Below are positions 4,752-18,971 of a stretch of 47,511 nt of DNA, one piece after another. The notes under the pieces were generated by a model. That model searched no databases. It worked only from the letters and a program-made list of their open reading frames with translations, and was not told where the DNA came from. The stretch lies in the IMG/VR virus record IMGVR_UViG_2541047920_000001; one strand, written 5' to 3'. The translations under genes and the position numbers were made by a program. Numbering within the stretch: position 1 is the first letter of the stretch; each line of letters begins with the position of its first letter. Source of the DNA: a virus (Duplodnaviria; Heunggongvirae; Uroviricota; Caudoviricetes).

Positions 4752-4809
4752 AAAAACGGCGGCAGAGCAGTCACGGAGTAAAACTGATACCGCCAAACGT
4801 CACCAGAAA
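4752..4809 (-). ncRNA. dicF: DicF-like small regulatory RNA
   Basis: Minus-strand sequence UUUCUGGUGACGUUUGGCGGUAUCAGUUUUACUCCGUGACUGCUCUGCCGCC followed by a U-tract matches the DicF sRNA as I remember it; located between ydfA/B/C-like genes and dicB as in K-12. Confidence 0.7.
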
Positions 4810-5801: not shown

Positions 5802-6093
5802 GCTGACCTCATTTCCCCTTAACGCCGGGGTAGCGGAACAAAAACCTGCTGCATAGTTATTAAAGTTGAACCCTGCCGTCATGTTCTTACGCCTCGGGCT
5901 GGCTACTTAACCCCTGACCACTGCCTGGTAACTCGAAGTATTGCCCTGCATTCTGTGGGGCGGGGTGAGAGAATGAATGAAGTTTAGAAAAATGAACATT
6001 TAAGGTCAATGTTTTTTTATCAAAACATTTTAAGCAGGCAGCTGTTACGCCATCACTACGATGGCATACAGTTAATCAAATAGATGAGGTTGG

Positions 6094-6732
6094 TTAAATA
6101 TCTTGTTGAATTTTAAAGCATACTCCCAATATGCAAGATAGATCATCCAGCATAATTGAAGGGTAGCGAGGATTCGTGGGGACTAAAAGAATATCCGGCC
6201 CTTCTATCTCCAGTTTGCGAATGACAGGCGTTGTGGTCCCTTTGGGTAAGGCAAGGACAATATTTCCTGGTTGTACGATTCGATCGGGATCAACAAAAAC
6301 TGTTGAACCATTTGGGATGGAAACTCCACCACCAGATGTCGACATACTGTCACTCTCTAGAACAACAGCAAAGGTATTGGCCGGGATTTCTCCGACAAGC
6401 TGCACACAAGAGGTTATTGAGGAATTTTTCATATAATCACTCCAGCTTGCTGCCTGCTGAAGTGATAGTAGCGGAACCGTTTTTATCGGCGGTAAAGATA
6501 GATCAAGCGAATCACCTGTATTTAACTCTCCTCCATTAAGAAGCCAATTTTCGTTTACTTTCAATATCTTTGCCAGTGAGCTTATGTAACGCGAGGACGG
6601 CGCTCCTCCACCGTTCATCCATTGACTTACGGAGCCTTTTGATGCGCCAGTGGCATTGACAAGGTCTTTGCCTTTCAAGTTTAGCGCATGCATACGTTGG
6701 GTTATGCGTTCAGATATTGTTTGCTTGTTCAT
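6094..6732 (-). CDS. CI-like prophage repressor (HTH domain + LexA/S24-type autopeptidase domain)
   Basis: 212 aa; N-terminal HTH (…LKGKDLVNATGASKGSVSQWMNG…), C-terminal S24-like segment; divergent from a cro-like gene. Confidence 0.85.
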   Translation of the reverse strand: MNKQTISERITQRMHALNLKGKDLVNATGASKGSVSQWMNGGGAPSSRYISSLAKILKVNENWLLNGGELNTGDSLDLSLPPIKTVPLLSLQQAASWSDYMKNSSITSCVQLVGEIPANTFAVVLESDSMSTSGGGVSIPNGSTVFVDPDRIVQPGNIVLALPKGTTTPVIRKLEIEGPDILLVPTNPRYPSIMLDDLSCILGVCFKIQQDI

Positions 6733-6794
6733 GTTTTGATTTTAAAACACAGATGGTTTTGTTTCTTGACTTTCTTTGGTTTTGATTATTAAAC
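6733..6794. promoter_or_regulatory. Divergent promoter/operator region with two similar 16-bp operator-like sites
   Basis: GTTTTGATTTTAAAAC (6733-6748) and GTTTTGATTATTAAAC (6779-6794) share a GTTTT…AAAC inverted-repeat frame; TTGACT -35-like hexamer at 6765-6770 for rightward transcription. Confidence 0.4.
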
Positions 6795-6823
6795 TTTTGG
6801 CGTTCAGTTTTATGGAGCGAATC

Positions 6824-7066
6824 ATGAAAAAATCAGAAGTATTAGGCTATTTTGGCGGAGTTGTTAAAACAGCCGCCGCTCTAGGAACGTCAAAAACCAC
6901 AGTCAGCATGTGGGGGGAAGACGTTCCGTGGAAATGGGCGTTGCTAATTCAGGCAGTCACTGCCGGGGCGCTCAAATATGAGTTACACATACCGACGGTT
7001 GTCATTCCCGGTTCTGATCATAATCCGCCTTCTAACCAAGGGGGGATTCATGAAAATCAAGCATGA
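6824..7066 (+). CDS. Cro-like / YdaS-like small HTH regulator
   Basis: 80 aa from ATG at 6824 (GGAG RBS); divergent from repressor; small protein typical of lambdoid cro position. Confidence 0.6.
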   Translation: MKKSEVLGYFGGVVKTAAALGTSKTTVSMWGEDVPWKWALLIQAVTAGALKYELHIPTVVIPGSDHNPPSNQGGIHENQA

Positions 7067-7475
7067 ACACATCCGCATGGCGATGAATGCCTGGGCACGT
7101 CCTGATGGCGAAAAAGTTCCGGCAGCTGGAATAACCCAGGCTTATTTTGAGTTGGGTATGACGTTTCCTAAACTGTACGACGACAGCCATCCGGAAGCCC
7201 TGGCTCGCAATACCCAGAAAATTTTCCGCTGGATAGAGAAAGACACCCCTGATGCAGTTGAAAAAATTCAGGCGTTGTTACCAGCGATCGAAAAGGCAAT
7301 GCCACCTTTGCTGGTGGCCAGAATGCGCAGCCACAGTTCAGCTTATTTTCGGGAGCTGGTGGAGACGCGGGAGCGACTGGTGAGAGACGCTGATGATTTT
7401 GTCGCAGTGGCAATCGCCGGTTTCAATCAGATGAACCGTGGTGGCCCGGCTGGAAATGCTGTGGCAGTACATTGA
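7050..7475 (+). CDS. CII-like / YdaT-like regulatory protein
   Basis: 141 aa (MKIKHEHIRMAMNAWARPDGEKV…) in the cII position between cro-like and replication genes. Confidence 0.5.
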   Translation: MKIKHEHIRMAMNAWARPDGEKVPAAGITQAYFELGMTFPKLYDDSHPEALARNTQKIFRWIEKDTPDAVEKIQALLPAIEKAMPPLLVARMRSHSSAYFRELVETRERLVRDADDFVAVAIAGFNQMNRGGPAGNAVAVH

Positions 7476-7546
7476 CTGACAATAGCCATATCGAATCGCT
7501 TCCGGCAACTCGTGAGTAAAAAGATTCGGTATCAGAAGAGGTGAGT

Positions 7547-8617
7547 ATGGCTAACGCCTGGCTCAGATTATGGCATGACATGCCAAATGACCCTAAGTGG
7601 CGAACAATTGCCAGGGTGTCAGGGCAGCCAATTGCAACAGTGATGGCAGTGTATATCCACCTCCTGGTGAGCGCGTCACGAAATGTCACGCGAGGTCACA
7701 TTGATGTCACGACAGAAGATTTGGCAAGTGCGCTCGACGTGACAGAAGAGGTAATTGATTCAATTTTGCAGACGATGCAGGGGCGGGTACTTGATGGTGA
7801 TTTAATCACTGGATGGGAAAAACGCCAGGTGCTGAAAGAGGACAACGGTAATATTTCGCAAACCGCAAAATCTCCGGCAGAGCGCAAGAGGGCGCAGCGA
7901 GAGAGGGAAAGAAAGCGGGAACAAAATGGCGATTGTCACGGCGAGTCACGAAATGTCACGCACATGTCACGACGAGTCACGACAGATAAAGATACAGATA
8001 AAGATACAGATCAAGAAGATCAAAACACTATGGTCCATGGCGTAAAAAACGCCGCGAACCAGGCAGGGGATGTTCAGACCGTCAATCTTGGTCAGCCAGC
8101 AGGCACGACACCGGAAGCCGATTCAGCGTATGCGCTGAAAGCCGATTCGGGCGCTGTGCAGCAGGTGATGACCGCAAGGCAGGAGCAATCACACCAACTT
8201 CAGCAGCCTGAAGCCGATTCCGCCATTCAGCGGGAAGCCGATCGGGTAGTCCCGGAAAACACCGGGCAGCCTGTGGGACGAGTGGATTATCCTGATGTGT
8301 TCGAACAGGTCTGGCGGGAATACCCGTTGCGTGCCGGGGCAAGCCCGAAGAAATCCGCTTTCAGTGCCTGGAAGGCCAGATTACGCGAGGGGGTGCCACC
8401 AGAGGCCATGCTGGATGGCGTGAGGCGTTACGCAAGATACCTGGCGGCTACCGGGAAAACGGGAACGGAATTTGTTCAGCGAGCGACGACGTTTTTTGGA
8501 CCGGACCGGAATTTTGAAAACCCCTGGTTGCTCCCGGTAAGCGGTACGAACAACCAGCGTTGTGTGAATCATATTTCTGAACCGGATACCGAAATTCCAC
8601 CGGGCTTCAGGGGGTAA
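7547..8617 (+). CDS. Replication initiation protein (lambda O-like position) carrying internal origin iterons
   Basis: 356 aa; N-terminus …WLRLWHDMPNDPKWRTIARVSG…; GTCAC(G) iteron clusters lie within its coding sequence. Confidence 0.65.
   Translation: MANAWLRLWHDMPNDPKWRTIARVSGQPIATVMAVYIHLLVSASRNVTRGHIDVTTEDLASALDVTEEVIDSILQTMQGRVLDGDLITGWEKRQVLKEDNGNISQTAKSPAERKRAQRERERKREQNGDCHGESRNVTHMSRRVTTDKDTDKDTDQEDQNTMVHGVKNAANQAGDVQTVNLGQPAGTTPEADSAYALKADSGAVQQVMTARQEQSHQLQQPEADSAIQREADRVVPENTGQPVGRVDYPDVFEQVWREYPLRAGASPKKSAFSAWKARLREGVPPEAMLDGVRRYARYLAATGKTGTEFVQRATTFFGPDRNFENPWLLPVSGTNNQRCVNHISEPDTEIPPGFRG
7672..8012 (+). repeat. Putative replication origin: two GTCACG iteron clusters plus adjacent GATAAAGATACAGA direct repeat
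   Basis: GTCAC(G/A) at 7675, 7685, 7695, 7706 and at 7935, 7945, 7955, 7966, 7976 with about 10-11 bp phasing; 17-mer GTCACGAAATGTCACGC occurs twice; followed by gataaagatacagataaagatacaga (7983-8012). Confidence 0.5.
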
Positions 8618-8657: not shown

Positions 8658-9083
8658 GTGGCAAAAGTTTTTACACAAGAAGAGCGAGAAAAAATTAAGG
8701 GGCTGGTTGTTGAACTTGTACGTCTGAGTGGTCGCGAGACGTTACGGGCTCTGGAGGCTAAAACCGGTGCATCAAGGTATTACATAAGCACTCTCGCCAG
8801 AGAGCTGGTTGCCAGCGGCGATGTATACAACTCTGGTTACGGATTATTCCCGTCTGAACAGGCTCGTAAGGACTGGCAAAATGCCCGCAAAAAACTCTCA
8901 AGGGCAAAGCTGAAGAAAAAAACATCTGTGGTTGATCCGGACCTTATCTGGTCATTACCTGACGGAGAAATACGTCGCTACGACAGTCGTCTAAACATAA
9001 TCTGTCGCGAGTGCCGGAAGAGCGAAGTTATGCAGCGTGTTCTGACGTTTTATCAGGGGAATTATCGGGAGGTGATGCTGTGA
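8658..9083 (+). CDS. Hypothetical protein, possible HTH-containing nin-region protein
   Basis: 141-aa ORF with GTG start after AGGAGGA RBS; basic K/R-rich segment. Confidence 0.5.
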   Translation: MAKVFTQEEREKIKGLVVELVRLSGRETLRALEAKTGASRYYISTLARELVASGDVYNSGYGLFPSEQARKDWQNARKKLSRAKLKKKTSVVDPDLIWSLPDGEIRRYDSRLNIICRECRKSEVMQRVLTFYQGNYREVML

Positions 9084-9313
9084 GTACATCGGCTACCATT
9101 CTCGACATGTGCTGTGGCAGTCGCATGCTCTGGTTCGATAAGAATGACGAATGGTCGATATTTAGCGATATCAGGAAAGAGGAACATTCGCTATGTGATG
9201 GACGTCACCCGATTATTAATCCCGACATTATCGCTGATTTTCGTGCGCTGCCGTGGTTGTCTGCTTTGCATCAAAAGCAGACATTACCAGATTTAGACAT
9301 CTGTTTCCGATAG
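9080..9313 (+). CDS. Small ORF with class-I methyltransferase motif-I-like N-terminus (possible gene remnant)
   Basis: 77 aa from GTG (GGGAGG RBS); sequence …[14 protein letters not shown]… resembles a SAM-binding motif I but the ORF is far too short for a methyltransferase. Confidence 0.3.
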
Positions 9314-9366
9314 CCCGTTCTGATGCTACACTTTTTGCTATTTTCATGAACCTCATAAACACATTT

Positions 9367-10032
9367 ATGACTGTTGCTGATTTCAAACGCCCCAAATTGG
9401 AGCTCCCAAACGGGGCAAAAAAACTATTACTGCACTCTTGCTGTGCTCCATGTTCCGGTGAAGTGATGGAGGCGCTTCAGGCCTCGGGAATCGACTACAC
9501 CATCTTTTTCTACAACCCGAACATTCATCCTCAGAAAGAGTATTTAATTCGTAAGGATGAGAATATTCGCTTTGCTAAACAACACGGCGTGCCATTTATT
9601 GATGCTGATTACGACACAGACAACTGGTTTGAGCGAGCCAAAGGAATGGAATGGGAGCCTGAACGAGGGATCCGTTGTACCATGTGTTTTGACATGCGTT
9701 TTGAGCGGACTGCACTGTATGCCGCTGAAAATGGTTTCAGTGTGATCAGTAGCTCACTGGGCATTTCACGCTGGAAAAATATGCAGCAGGTTAACGACTG
9801 TGGACGGCGAGCCGTCGCGCATTATCCGGGCATGGTGTACTGGGATTATAACTGGCGAAAACAGGGCGGCTCTTCCCGCATGATTGAAATCAGCAAGCGC
9901 GAACAATTCTATCAGCAGGAATATTGTGGCTGCGTGTATTCACTGCGCGATACCAATCTACACCGCAAATCTCAGGGACGCCCTCTAATCAAAATTGGTC
10001 AACTGCACTACGGTAAGGAAGGACAGGAATGA
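9367..10032 (+). CDS. queH: QueH-like (DUF208) epoxyqueuosine reductase homologue
   Basis: N-terminal …[14 protein letters not shown]… and later …RCTMCF… and …EYCGCVYS… cysteine motifs that I recognise as the QueH/DUF208 signature; about 221 aa (alternative start 9346). Confidence 0.65.
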
Positions 10033-10644
10033 TTTTATATTATGCCAACGGAGCGTAGCAGTGTTTCTATATATAGTACGCCTACCTTAATTTTCAAATA
10101 ATCATGATTAATGAGCAGGTCATCAGTGCAAGCAATGACCTGCTCATCTTGTTGAAATTAGAGGAAATCTTGCAGCCATGATATGGCTTAAAATAACGTT
10201 TGATTATTTTACCTGCTGTTTGTCCCTGGTTTAAAGTCGGTTGTCTGATTTGATTACGCGCAACTGACGCTTACGTATTGAAGTAACGAGCACGAAGACA
10301 CATATTTATCAGTGCCTGTATACGTCAAGAGCAGGAGATTTATGTGCTGGTTCTCAAATGCACGCTGGCTATTGTGGCTGTAATGGCAATTTATTGTCTT
10401 GTTATTGTTCTTATGGATCACCTTTCTGATTGATTTCATATTGGCGAGGTAGCGGTAGTTAAGTAGAATGGCTGCGGGTGCTTGAGGCTATCTGCCTCGG
10501 GCATGAACACCAACGGCAGATAGAGAAAAGCCCCAGTTAACATTACGCGTCCTGCAAGACGCTTAACATTAATCTGAGGCCAATTTCATGCTAGACACAT
10601 GTAGGTTAGCCTCTTACGTGCCGGAAGGCAAGGAGAAGCAGGCT

Positions 10645-10800
10645 ATGAAGCAGCAAAAGGCGATGTTAATCGCCCTGATCGTCATCTGTTTAACCGTCAT
10701 AGTGACGGCACTGGTAACGAGGAAAGACCTCTGCGAGGTACGAATCCGAACCGGCCAGACGGAGGTCGCTGTCTTCACAGCTTACGAACCTGAGGAGTAA
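10645..10800 (+). CDS. hokD: Hok/Gef family membrane toxin (HokD/RelF-like)
   Basis: 51-aa product MKQQKAMLIALIVICLTVIVTALVTRKDLCEVRIRTGQTEVAVFTAYEPEE; RBS GGAGAAG; an in-frame upstream extension gives the listed ORF 10588..10800. Confidence 0.85.
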   Translation: MKQQKAMLIALIVICLTVIVTALVTRKDLCEVRIRTGQTEVAVFTAYEPEE

Positions 10801-10966: not shown

Positions 10967-11581
10967 ATGCAGAATTTATCTCAACAGTTGTTAGAAGCAT
11001 ATGACAAGGAGTGCCGCAAAGAGCTTTCGATCGCGTTAGCACAGGCTTATCTTCATTCGCATATGAAGGCAAAAGAGTTTGGTTCTTTTTGGGCTCAAGC
11101 ACAGTCATATTTGCGCTGGTTTTATGCCGATGCATTGCTTGAGAATGCGGCTAAGCGTGTGGGGCTGGATTTTGAAGTCGGTAGCAATGCTGCTAAAAAT
11201 TGTAAACACATTGCGATTCACTCGAACAACTGGAAAATGACGGCACATCATTTATCGGGTAATGCGCCACTTCCTAAGCAGGCATTGTATAGAGCTGTTT
11301 ACGCTAATCAAAATTATGAATTGAATTTTGGGGATGAAAATGCCGACTCCCTGGATGGGAGAGCGTCTGGTGGACATGTTTATATGTTACATGATGGCAG
11401 TAATCAGCACTTGTCCAAACTGAATTTAACTGTTCCTTCTTCGGATAATTACGGGATTCTTTATACTGAGTCTTTACCAATTATGACGATGGTAGAAGTT
11501 GAAGCAGAAAATGTGGATTCTGAGATTGAAGATAAAATCAAGATTCTTACCGAACAAATAATTAAATCACAGCAATCATGA
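10967..11581 (+). CDS. Hypothetical protein, upstream partner of the HTH-ImmA/IrrE gene (candidate effector)
   Basis: 204-aa ORF with no motif I recognise; stop overlaps the start of the next gene (ATGA), implying translational coupling; lower GC than flanks by eye. Confidence 0.6.
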   Translation: MQNLSQQLLEAYDKECRKELSIALAQAYLHSHMKAKEFGSFWAQAQSYLRWFYADALLENAAKRVGLDFEVGSNAAKNCKHIAIHSNNWKMTAHHLSGNAPLPKQALYRAVYANQNYELNFGDENADSLDGRASGGHVYMLHDGSNQHLSKLNLTVPSSDNYGILYTESLPIMTMVEVEAENVDSEIEDKIKILTEQIIKSQQS

Positions 11582-12723
11582 GCATGAATATCGCACAAAC
11601 ACCATTTACTGATAAATCGTTTAATCCTCGTCGCCTTGAGGAGGCAAGAGAGGCAAAAGGGTTGACGATGGCTGAACTTGCCAGAGTGCTCAATATTTCA
11701 AGACAAGCTATTTCGTCATTTGAGAAGGGGTTGAAGTCTCCCTCTGCTGATACACTTTCTGCAATAGCCAAGGTGTTAGGATTTCCAGAACGATTTTTCT
11801 TAGCCTCCAGTGCTTCTCCATCTCTGGAGGGGGCGATTCATTTTAGAAGTCGTTCAACTGCGACCAAAAAGGCTCGAGTTACAGGGAAAACACGTGGGCG
11901 TTGGGCGGCATTAATATTGGATGAATGTCTAAAATATGCTCAATTACCAGATGTGGTTCTGCCTGAATTCGATATTATTGATTTTGAGGTTCTGTCTCTA
12001 TCTGATATTGAGGATATGTCCACCCAATTAAGGCGTTTTTGGGGGTTAGGTGATGGTCCAATACTCAATTTAACTAGACTTGTTGAAAATAAAGGAATCG
12101 TGGTTTCTCATTTACCTTCTGGTGAGAAAGTTGATGCCTTTTCGTTCTGGCATAATGGGCGGCCTTTAATTATGTTAGATAGCTCGAAGACGGCTGTTCG
12201 CATGCGATTTAGTCTTGCTCATGAACTTGGCCATTTAATTATGCATAGGGCAGTGGAGGATGACTACCTGAATGATAAAGAATTATTCGACCTGGTGGAG
12301 TTGCAGGCCGATTATTTTGCCTCCAGCTTTTTAATGCCAGCCACCACTTTCGGGCGTGAATTTTATAGTCCAAATTTATCAGCGTTAGAACGATTAAAAC
12401 TACGTTGGATTACATCTATCGGTAGTATTGCCATGAGGAGTCATAGCCTTAAGTTAATCAGCGATAATCAGAAAAGCTATATATTTAAGCAATTAGCGCC
12501 ATTCCATCGTAGGGAGCCGTTAGATGATGCAATCCCAAAAGAAGAGCCTGAGTTACTTAATAAGTTACTTTTACTTCTTGATAAGCATTCAATCATAAAG
12601 GTAACTGAGTTAACTGATATCTTTGCTCTTCCCTTAAATGAGTTATCTGCAATTACACGATTTAAAGAATCAGATATGATTCATTCTGACAATGTTATTT
12701 CATTTACCATAAAACAAAAATAA
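11578..12723 (+). CDS. HTH-XRE DNA-binding domain fused to ImmA/IrrE-family zinc metallopeptidase (DUF955-like) with C-terminal extension
   Basis: 381 aa; N-terminal HTH (…LTMAELARVLNISRQAISSFEKG…); HEXXH motif in …SLAHELGHLIMH…; low-GC region ending in a terminator. Confidence 0.8.
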   Translation: MSMNIAQTPFTDKSFNPRRLEEAREAKGLTMAELARVLNISRQAISSFEKGLKSPSADTLSAIAKVLGFPERFFLASSASPSLEGAIHFRSRSTATKKARVTGKTRGRWAALILDECLKYAQLPDVVLPEFDIIDFEVLSLSDIEDMSTQLRRFWGLGDGPILNLTRLVENKGIVVSHLPSGEKVDAFSFWHNGRPLIMLDSSKTAVRMRFSLAHELGHLIMHRAVEDDYLNDKELFDLVELQADYFASSFLMPATTFGREFYSPNLSALERLKLRWITSIGSIAMRSHSLKLISDNQKSYIFKQLAPFHRREPLDDAIPKEEPELLNKLLLLLDKHSIIKVTELTDIFALPLNELSAITRFKESDMIHSDNVISFTIKQK

Positions 12724-15057: not shown

Positions 15058-15600
15058 TGCTTTAAATGGGGCAATAGAGATATTGAATCTCATCCCGGGA
15101 TAAACATTGGGAGTTGAAGGTCCACGCGAACCATTTATCCGGCAAAATTCCACGCGTAATCCTGTGGTAATTTCTTCTGCATCTCGAAGATTGAGAGCTG
15201 AAACGTGAAGCTGGGCATCGATACGCCATCGGATGGGAATATAAGACCTTTGCTGCTTTTGTAGTCAAAGTTTTTGACAATTCCTGTCATTTTAGGGGAC
15301 AGAAAAACTCCTTAATACTGATAACCTGGTGCACCATACACACGTTCCTGGAGAAAACTACTTTGTTGATAGGGTTGAAGGTGGCTGGATGTCTAAAATA
15401 AACATTGCTTCATATGTTCAACTATGAGTTAATGACTGCGTCGGTTTGAAGAACAGACGATATACGAAGTAGTTTACTAAAGCAGTTCTCATTTCAGGTG
15501 TTATTCACTTATTCCTTCTTTGAGTCTCTCCAATTAAGTACGAAGTCGTTTCTGTTATGCAAACCATTTATGCCGAAAGGCTCAAGTTAAGGAATGTAGA

Positions 15601-15816
15601 ATGTCAAATAAAATGACTGGTTTAGTAAAATGGTTTAACGCTGATAAAGGTTTCGGCTTTATTTCTCCTGTTGATGGTAGTAAAGATGTGTTTGTGCATT
15701 TTTCTGCGATTCAGAATGATAATTATCGAACCTTATTTGAAGGTCAAAAGGTTACCTTCTCTATAGAGAGTGGTGCTAAAGGTCCTGCAGCAGTAAATGT
15801 CATCATTACTGATTAA
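15601..15816 (+). CDS. cspB: Cold-shock protein, CspA family (CspB-like)
   Basis: 71-aa product [23 protein letters not shown]… with RNP1-like KGFGFI and VFVHF motifs; long 5' leader. Confidence 0.85.
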
Positions 15817-16097
15817 AATTCATCGCTCGTCTGTATACGATAACGAAGAAGGCTGATGCCTGAGTAGAGATACGGACAGAGTAGTGAATATTGGATCTCT
15901 TTAATAAAAAGTAAGGAGGTCCAATACATGAAACAATGGCCAGCATATTTGGCAAAATCTTAATCAGGAAAAGTATGCTAACCATTGTGGTGAAGTGCAG
16001 GTTTGCTGCATGAATAGTTTTACAGCAGAAGCTAACTGCTGGCATGGCAAAACAAAGTGCGTAAGTGGATGACTCCCACAAAAAGCACCACAATCTC

Positions 16098-18125: not shown

Positions 18126-18487
18126 GGTAATATTAAATCGGAACATTTACATCGCGGAATGTAAAATTTAAATAAAAAGGACTCTTCCATGAGCCAAAAT
18201 TCCTGAAATCTTAAGGGTAAGATAAAAGGTCTTAATCAGAATGACACGTTTTATTAATAAATAAAGCTATTCTTTCATTGCTGTGTTTTTCTTTACAAAA
18301 GTAATCCTTGCTATGGGTGGTTAATCATGCGTTAATGGTGTTCTGGTTTGTTACAAATTTATCTGAAGCAGTCATTGTTATAATTTTATTATTTGTACCT
18401 CTTGAGATTTCCTTGTTGGTTTTTCTCTCTGATATTTTTTTTCGGACCATTCTGCCCAAGGGCTAATTTCTTCAAAAGGTAATAATT

Positions 18488-18700
18488 ATGTCTAACAAAA
18501 TGACTGGTTTAGTGAAATGGTTTAACCCTGAAAAAGGTTTTGGTTTCATCACGCCGAAAGATGGCAGCAAAGATGTGTTTGTCCATTTCTCAGCAATTCA
18601 GAGCAACGATTTCAAAACATTAACTGAGAATCAGGAAGTTGAATTTGGTATTGAGAACGGACCTAAAGGTCCTGCCGCTGTTCATGTAGTGGCGCTTTGA
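18488..18700 (+). CDS. cspI: Cold-shock protein, CspA family (CspI-like)
   Basis: 70-aa product [39 protein letters not shown]…; long AT-rich leader. Confidence 0.85.
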
Positions 18701-18971
18701 GGTAGACAATATTACAAACCATATTCACTTTAGATGCCCGTGTTGTCATGGTTCCCAGTATAGAACATCATCTTTTGATGTTTCTGACATGAATCCTTTC
18801 GGGGCAAAATGTATCTTTTGTAAATCAATGATGATTACATTTGATAATATTTCACAATACTTAAATGCCAGCCGTCTGTCGTTGGATTTAAAAAAGTGAA
18901 AATGAAGGCTCCTTCGGGAGCTTTTTTGCTTGGTATCTATTCGATGGATACTCACATACTACGGTAACATC

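Follow-up and report, generated by a model that had tools for sequence, protein, structure and literature searches.

A queH gene for a predicted cobalamin-independent epoxyqueuosine reductase in a Qin-type lambdoid prophage of Escherichia coli

What might a prophage-borne epoxyqueuosine reductase contribute to a bacterium that already encodes an enzyme for the same reaction? This question is raised by queH, a gene located at positions 9367-10032 of the Caudoviricetes record IMGVR_UViG_2541047920_000001 (47,511 nt; this whole stretch of DNA is referred to below as the window). QueH is a small iron-sulfur enzyme which, without cobalamin (vitamin B12), converts epoxyqueuosine (oQ) into queuosine (Q) at position 34 of tRNA-Asp, tRNA-Asn, tRNA-His and tRNA-Tyr. 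The family (DUF208, PF02677, COG1636) was reportedly discovered by Zallot et al. in 2017. Escherichia coli has no de novo cobalamin synthesis. Its native cobalamin- and [4Fe-4S]-dependent reductase, QueG (YjeS), carries out the same reaction, i.e. oQ34 to Q34 in tRNA (PMC5372724; PMC4646009), but belongs to a non-homologous family. The cobalamin requirement of QueG and of the oQ-to-Q step of E. coli is given in those parts of PMC4646009 that cite Frey et al. 1988 and Miles et al. 2011, and also in PMC11841063; QueH has been presented as an iron-dependent, B12-independent alternative (PMC13443448; PMC9508795).

We consider it probable (roughly 0.7, judging from comparative sequence data) that queH is a self-promoted moron, which would provide the lysogen with cobalamin-independent oQ-to-Q conversion. 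This reading fits four results: the presence of a conserved promoter-like element upstream of the gene, strong purifying selection, the absence of the gene from sister phages and the intact queG of the host. The comparisons establish the family to which the protein belongs, the intactness of the gene, its purifying selection, its mobility, the junctions, the conservation of the promoter-like motif and the queG of the host; the enzymatic activity in E. coli, the expression in the lysogen and the advantage of B12 independence are inferred. A preliminary description of the window had likewise proposed a moron altering the queuosine status of host tRNA, and our results speak in favor of that proposal.

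Identity and conservation of the QueH protein

The gene was delimited as follows:

9367..10032, + strand: queH coding sequence, epoxyqueuosine reductase QueH (DUF208/PF02677); 221 amino acids (aa), ATG at 9367, stop codon at 10030-10032

In the open reading frame (ORF) starting at 9367, the preliminary description had pointed out an N-terminal motif as well as RCxMCF and EYCGC; all three cysteine motifs are present and the coordinates are exact. Its assignment of the product to QueH (DUF208) was confirmed by Pfam: the protein matches PF02677 (formerly DUF208) with a score of 220.8 bits (gathering cut-off 23.5 bits; E-value 1.7e-65) over profile positions 1-174 of 175. Pfam revealed no second domain besides QueH in the 221-aa protein, and a cobalamin-binding domain was not detected. 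The NCBIfam search returned no match for QueH. In RefSeq, the Prokaryotic Genome Annotation Pipeline has named the product of window positions 9367-10032 "epoxyqueuosine reductase QueH" (WP_001595803.1).

In the PDB, the sequence of the crystallized QueH of Thermotoga maritima (TmQueH; 7LC5/7LC7/9DEU) matches residues 20-196 of the prophage protein (E-value 5e-22), with an identity to this solved enzyme of only 30-33%. The AlphaFold2 model (pLDDT 70.4, pTM 0.71) was compared with the PDB using Foldseek, and ranks 1-5 were all occupied by TmQueH (E-values 5e-10 to 5e-9; target-normalised TM 0.80-0.83). Far below these were adenine-nucleotide alpha-hydrolase-type proteins, namely TtuA, LarE and argininosuccinate synthetase. 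The prophage protein resembles TmQueH in its six Cys residues, its predicted fold and its character as a small single-domain protein in which no cobalamin-binding domain was detected. It differs, besides its low identity, in a C-terminal extension of ~25 aa and in one substitution (Asp13 to Cys29) discussed below, and its gene is carried by a prophage, unlike the housekeeping loci of the TmQueH type.

An alignment with TmQueH and nine proteobacterial QueH proteins revealed that Cys25, Cys26, Cys104, Cys107, Cys187 and Cys189 are invariant, as are the blocks FFYNPNI, ERTA and YCGC. The order of these cysteines (CC...CxxC...CxC) is that of TmQueH, in which, as reportedly established by Li et al. 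in 2021, they are the metal-binding residues. Cys25 aligns with C9 of TmQueH, the position altered in the PDB mutant C9S (9d86).

queH is under strong purifying selection, with a ratio of nonsynonymous to synonymous substitutions (dN/dS) of 0.02-0.05 among the prophage alleles, at dS values of up to 0.45. The ORF is intact in all 80 IMG/VR copies, which encode proteins of 218-224 aa and only six distinct sequences. The prophage ORF is an intact member of the QueH family.

An in-frame ATG at 9346, used as the start codon in the annotation of the isolated phage HannyBb, was rejected. At this position the prophage of GPEC657 reads ATT, and 9 nt ahead of its conserved queH ATG there is a TAA in frame; the N-termini of the orthologues are consistent with a start at 9367. 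In the HannyBb record (PP925841, 33011-33697), queH starts at the upstream ATG and is labelled hypothetical. The PHROGs family of QueH is phrog_3217, of "unknown function", whose profile begins at residue 34 of the protein, which suggests that its members include truncated gene calls.

Organization of the queH cassette

The location of the gene in a prophage, as given in the preliminary description, was borne out. The 1.8 kb around queH recurs with 100% identity in the chromosomes of three E. coli strains, e.g. GABEEC10 (NZ_CP118407.1), and in the RefSeq annotation of the GABEEC10 record the window is a complete-looking Qin-type lambdoid prophage, bounded by rspB and a truncated ydfJ. Its genes are arranged in the order (i) integrase, excisionase, exonuclease, dicB, DicF, cI-like repressor, cro and ydaT, (ii) an O-like replication gene, DUF977, a methyltransferase pseudogene, QueH, hokD and two cargo genes, and (iii) DUF968, the Q antiterminator, csp genes, lysis genes, terminase, portal, capsid and tail genes. 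In the same host strain, queG is intact (379 aa) and lies in the chromosome between nnr and tRNA-Gly genes. No other genes for 7-deazaguanine synthesis are annotated across the 47.5-kb prophage in this 100%-identical record, and specifically no DpdA/Tgt-like transglycosylase, FolE, QueD, QueE or QueC. ARAGORN found no tRNA genes.

The following features were distinguished around queH:

8658..9083, + strand: DUF977 / LygF / Ren-like gene (Pfam PF06163, E-value 9e-28; phrog_142)
9080..9252, + strand: 5′ remnant of a gene for a phage class I S-adenosyl-methionine (SAM)-dependent DNA methyltransferase, first ~58 codons (RefSeq, tblastn, PHROG)
9253..9366, + strand: leader of the queH cassette, with a hairpin and a candidate extended -10 element (start of homology, folding, motif conservation)
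10039..10410, + strand: 3′ segment travelling with queH in this haplotype and in GPEC657 (blast breakpoints; missing from the ST131/O157 haplotype)

The DUF977 gene is a conserved phage gene marking the upstream edge of the cargo slot that holds queH. The left end of the cassette could be placed within a few bases, since DNA homology to phage PhiR42_1 ends at 9246-9252 and homology to the queH prophages lacking the methyltransferase remnant (ST131, O157, ERP001) begins at 9252/9253 (blast breakpoints). PhiR42_1 carries a methyltransferase gene in the same slot, after DUF977/LygF, and no queH. The right junction lies either at 10038 or at 10410-10445: prophages of the ST131/O157/ERP001 type have the segment 9253-10038 in common, the GPEC657-type prophage shares 9319-10445, and the copies on IncF plasmids share queH with 50-95 nt upstream and ~30 nt downstream only. 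The methyltransferase remnant and the 3′ segment 10039-10410 occur together in 14 of the 80 viral contigs, and the remainder carry neither. queH is absent from sister phages and prophages sharing its flanks, i.e. PhiR42_1 and the Qin prophage of BL21(DE3).

Inspection of the leader revealed the sequence TGCTACACT (9324-9332), located 34 nt before the ATG. It is the window version of a motif, ATGCTACA(C/A)T, which is nearly invariant upstream of queH in 14 contexts (prophage, plasmid and chromosomal), although their flanking sequences cannot otherwise be aligned. Its distance from the queH start codon is 34-35 nt in 80 of 80 viral contigs. Both TGCTACACT and TGCTACAAT are versions of the conserved extended -10, and judging from its sequence (TGn plus TAnAnT), TGCTACACT may be read as a promoter-like element of the extended -10 type. 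The queH leader matched none of the RNA families of Rfam, among them the preQ1 riboswitches, and only sok lies downstream.

Two hairpins are predicted. The first (9254-9289; core stem 9258-9267/9274-9283; -18.4 kcal/mol, z -4.3) lies exactly at the left end of the cassette and has the form GTCTGCTTT-N6-AAAGCAGAC. Its outer arms, GTCTG...CAGAC, recur in the copy of a Salmonella IncF plasmid and in one of two Klebsiella plasmid copies, in which the interior differs. It could be the relic of a terminator of the upstream gene, an insulator or a protein-binding site. The second hairpin is located 3′ of queH (10111-10147) and has a 13-bp stem (10111-10123/10135-10147; -22 kcal/mol, z -4.0).

The preliminary description regarded the 77-aa ORF preceding queH (GTG at 9080, stop codon at 9311-9313) as possibly the decayed remnant of a linked methyltransferase. 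The first part of this claim holds. RefSeq lists a pseudogene at 9080-9265 ("methyltransferase; incomplete; missing C-terminus"), residues 1 to 62 of the ORF share 60-71% identity with small phage methyltransferases in tblastn, and PHROG matches to DNA methyltransferases (phrog_11564, E-value 2.9e-28; phrog_954, E-value 1.4e-24) are confined to residues 3-61. Neither Pfam nor NCBIfam gave a match for the 77-aa fragment. Its full-length relatives have 160-175 aa and contain DPPH; the full-length methyltransferase ORF of a Stx2c phage contains ADFRALPFADASFPMVIFDPPHLERVGDNAW. In alignment with these relatives the 77-aa ORF has kept the SAM-binding motif I, but it lacks the catalytic DPPH (motif IV) and everything 3′ of it: homology ends after ADFRALP, at about residue 58, and the last 19 codons come from cassette DNA. 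Comparison of the loci indicates that the methyltransferase gene is a usual occupant of this phage slot, truncated when the queH cassette arrived. The second part of the claim, a functional link to QueH, did not hold, because each of the two genes occurs without the other; the stump is a bystander and not a partner of QueH.

Distribution of queH and its probable origin

queH was found in 995 of 5426 complete E. coli genomes (~18%), at 1013 chromosomal places and 3 places on plasmids. The carriers include ST131, O157:H7, O104:H4 and E. coli B and C; K-12 is not known to carry queH. Matches sampled across the ranking were all named QueH (40/40). At every inspected chromosomal locus of E. coli, the gene directly follows the DUF977 gene of a Rac/Qin-type lambdoid prophage and precedes variable cargo (hokD, a NgoMIV-type restriction-modification system, Doc or DUF1971). 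At least 189 IMG/VR contigs encode queH, and the isolated phage HannyBb contains the same 2.3 kb with 97% identity. A homologue is present on 302 plasmids, 99 of Klebsiella and 67 of Escherichia.

Among the IncF plasmids from Salmonella and Klebsiella, of which two were typed as conjugative and a third as mobilizable, queH occurs alone, with 90-97% aa identity. Its neighbors there are unrelated: the fec iron-dicitrate transport genes, repA and copC, or NACHT and dgt. The Qin prophage of E. coli B ATCC 11303 contains the same methyltransferase stump together with queH and hokD. Compared with this strain, the Qin prophage of BL21(DE3) has a clean 1361-bp deletion (11356-12716 of the ATCC 11303 stretch compared; flanks 100% identical), removing the 3′ end of DUF977, the stump, queH and ~290 nt downstream. 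The DLP12 region of BL21(DE3) was considered as the queH site and rejected, as the gene is not there and belongs to Qin.

Outside Escherichia and its mobile elements, the proteins nearest to the prophage QueH share 78-92% identity with it. They include accessory-looking relatives in Scandinavium, Kluyvera and Enterobacter, and QueH proteins encoded on chromosomal contigs of Symbiopectobacterium, Erwinia, Brenneria, Pantoea, Serratia, Photorhabdus and Dickeya (78-88%). The QueH of Acinetobacter, whose gene lies in a chromosome-like neighborhood, falls within the same range, and similarly close QueH-named proteins are found in Providencia and Proteus. The chromosomal proteins of other Enterobacterales and of Acinetobacter have the same conserved motif and equal length. 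They differ in context: their genes are found on complete chromosomes or long contigs that lack the prophage genes flanking queH in the window, whereas the window queH is an accessory gene of a mobile element in a QueG-bearing host. The earlier statement that enterobacteria normally use QueG is true of this host, with its intact queG, but the closest relatives of the protein are the QueH proteins of other Enterobacterales. The upstream motif ATGCTACA is also present in the relatives from Scandinavium, Kluyvera, Enterobacter and Symbiopectobacterium. No donor species can be named, because, in other genera, blastn found neither the leader nor the 3′ segment in the chromosomal QueH regions.

A QueH gene also occurs in a 328-kb record designated "Acinetobacter phage MD-2021a" (CAKLQH020000001.1). 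Its neighbors there (soxR, cynX, ycaQ and an outer-membrane protein gene) look like those of a bacterial chromosome, and the record is probably mislabelled.

The slot after queH is a hot spot for defence and addiction cargo. In the prophage of E. coli O157:H7 Z1814 (5851-7861 of the O157 stretch compared), genes for a DNA cytosine methyltransferase and a NgoMIV-family restriction endonuclease replace hokD after queH, and in ERP001 the slot holds a Hok/Gef gene and the Doc toxin gene. The window contains a complete hok/sok type I toxin-antitoxin locus (10476-10800, + strand), composed of sok (Rfam, 114 bits; 10476-10650), a mok-like ORF (10588-10800) and hokD (10645-10800); hok/sok is the commonest downstream neighbor of queH (69 of 80 viral contigs). 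Just 3′ in the window, two overlapping genes (10967-11581 and 11578-12723, + strand) match the RosmerTA anti-phage defence pair: RmrT (204 aa; E-value 7.5e-10) and RmrA (381 aa, with a helix-turn-helix and a HExxH peptidase; E-value 5.5e-102), named in RefSeq "hypothetical protein" and "ImmA/IrrE family metallo-endopeptidase". This pair is shared by only 1 of the 80 queH-bearing viral contigs.

Proposed role of QueH and other genes of the prophage

We propose that queH was gained from a QueH-using gammaproteobacterial lineage, most plausibly another member of the Enterobacterales, as a single-gene cassette of ~0.8-1.2 kb. In lambdoid prophages of the Qin/Rac type, this cassette occupies the cargo (moron) slot that follows the DUF977 gene. 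The recombination importing queH would, in the haplotype of the window, have removed the 3′ two-thirds of the resident DNA methyltransferase gene, leaving a dead 5′ stump. The cassette would supply its own extended -10 promoter, TGCTACACT, and probably a terminator hairpin, which would likely make queH transcription in the lysogen independent of the repressed pR operon. As the host queG is intact, QueH is redundant with respect to the reaction. The likely benefit would be that tRNA is completed to Q, and not left at oQ, when B12 is scarce or not imported. The occurrence of a widespread gene under strong purifying selection in hosts possessing QueG suggests that the completion of Q from oQ may affect fitness where B12 cannot be had.

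queH shares several features with lambdoid morons, which are lone cargo genes placed between conserved phage genes and equipped with a promoter and a terminator of their own. Its insert is discrete and sharply bounded, and sister phages do not have it; there is a conserved promoter-like element belonging to the gene and a hairpin 3′ of it, and the slot holds other cargo as well (hokD, a restriction-modification system, Doc, RosmerTA). It is unlike them in that its candidate promoter and terminator miss strict consensus scans.

A number of observations weigh against the moron reading. As to expression, the strict sigma-70 promoter scan called nothing at TGCTACACT or adjoining queH, because the -35 region of the putative promoter is weak; no obvious Shine-Dalgarno sequence precedes the gene; the downstream hairpin is followed by CUUGUUG, a weak U-tract, and was not called by the strict terminator scan, its loop exceeding 8 nt, nor was any other terminator adjoining queH. 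queH is also co-oriented with the pR operon, so that lytic read-through transcription is equally possible. As to the protein, the AlphaFold2 model, at a pLDDT of 70, is of only moderate confidence, and Asp13 of TmQueH (D13N structure 9dco) aligns with Cys29. The latter appears to be a clade trait and not damage, because this position, part of an invariant block, is Cys in 20 of 20 aligned proteobacterial orthologues and in the QueH of Acinetobacter. As to the benefit, we know of no fitness difference between oQ and Q. Deletion of queG had no growth effect (PMC11841063). For these two reasons the selective advantage is conjecture. Finally, literature searches, within the library covered, yielded no paper on prophage- or plasmid-borne QueH.

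Of the alternatives, the one that survives best is that QueH serves the phage, being made only from pR after induction and tuning the Q status of host tRNA for the translation of late genes. The position of queH in the early-right operon, where it has the same orientation as the replication genes and Q, would agree with this, as would the lack of a canonical terminator between DUF977 and queH and the carriage of the gene by a viable isolated phage, HannyBb. We nevertheless consider it unlikely. The gene and the same upstream motif are kept on conjugative IncF plasmids and at non-phage chromosomal loci, and its maintenance is therefore independent of the phage life cycle; moreover, tRNA turnover during the lytic cycle would be short for an enzyme acting at the last maturation step.

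It is very unlikely that the QueH fold has been directed to another substrate (a 7-deazaguanine base in DNA, a free nucleoside or another epoxide) or to a role in defence or counter-defence. The cargo slot lies near hok/sok and RosmerTA in the window and near a restriction-modification system in O157, and Asp13 of TmQueH is replaced by Cys. Yet the identity of 78-88% to the QueH proteins of other Enterobacterales and of Acinetobacter, all with CCAPC, gives no sign of neofunctionalisation, DpdA/Tgt-like and preQ0 genes are not annotated in the prophage, and none of the PADLOC models matches QueH.

That queH is a neutral or decaying passenger without a current function is highly improbable. BL21(DE3) lost it through the 1361-bp deletion with no obvious harm, and the adjoining methyltransferase gene has decayed, but the selection statistics (dN/dS of 0.02-0.05 at dS up to 0.45) largely refute this explanation, and the 80 intact copies out of 80 in IMG/VR also speak against it, as does the presence of the gene in 995 complete E. 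coli genomes, with all 40 sampled matches named QueH.

The view that the methyltransferase fragment and QueH are, or were, a two-gene functional unit, prompted by their adjacency, their common orientation and the co-occurrence of the stump with the 3′ segment 10039-10410 in 14 of 14 contigs of this haplotype, can be dismissed because the two distributions are independent (PhiR42_1 has the methyltransferase gene in the slot without queH, related genes occur in Klebsiella and Salmonella phages without an annotated adjoining queH, and queH lacks a methyltransferase remnant in the ST131, O157, ERP001 and GPEC657 prophages and also on plasmids), and the fragment is devoid of the catalytic DPPH motif.

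Returning to the moron reading, a tentative and on balance doubtful extension of it is that queH constitutes a mobile "B12-independence upgrade" of tRNA queuosine maturation, spread by lambdoid prophages and IncF plasmids among QueG-bearing Enterobacteriaceae (E. coli, E. albertii, Klebsiella, Enterobacter and Salmonella). If this were true, the difference between oQ and Q would have a real fitness effect, e.g. in cobalamin-poor niches or in btuB mutants resistant to phages or colicins, and no phage-carried enzyme devoted to the tRNA-specific end of the Q pathway would have been documented before QueH. The preliminary description had cited as a precedent the frequent carriage of queuosine and 7-deazaguanine pathway genes by phages. 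This precedent hardly applies: the reported clusters (DpdA with FolE/QueD/QueE/QueC) serve to modify phage DNA, and no QueA, QueG or QueH was found in the viruses analysed (Hutinet et al. 2019, PMC6884629). The window resembles these phages in carrying a gene of the queuosine/7-deazaguanine pathway, but it is queH alone, with no DpdA or preQ0 genes annotated.

The novelty of the gene itself is low, since it belongs to a known family, its product is already named in RefSeq and the stump is already annotated too. What the survey adds is that a second oQ reductase, predicted to be independent of cobalamin, is encoded in ~18% of complete E. coli genomes and on hundreds of plasmids from Klebsiella and Escherichia. 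E. coli strains may consequently differ in the Q/oQ status of their tRNA in B12-free media, and such a difference without B12 may exist between ATCC 11303, which has queH, and BL21(DE3), from which it is deleted. Phage annotation resources miss the function of QueH, as is evident from the "unknown function" of PHROG 3217 and the "hypothetical protein" of HannyBb.

Among the remaining genes of the prophage, the one at the position of the replication initiator (7541-8617, + strand) encodes a 358-aa protein, a "hypothetical protein" in RefSeq without a Pfam match, whose last 24 residues weakly match the C-terminus of the primosomal protein DnaT (NCBIfam E-value 0.0014, far below the cut-off). The small RNA DicF is located beside dicB (Rfam, 72.5 bits; 4757-4808, - strand), and two cspA-type thermoregulator leaders (Rfam; 15440-15863 and 18342-18727, + strand) precede the prophage cspB and cspI genes. 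DicF and the cspA-type leaders are typical features of Qin.

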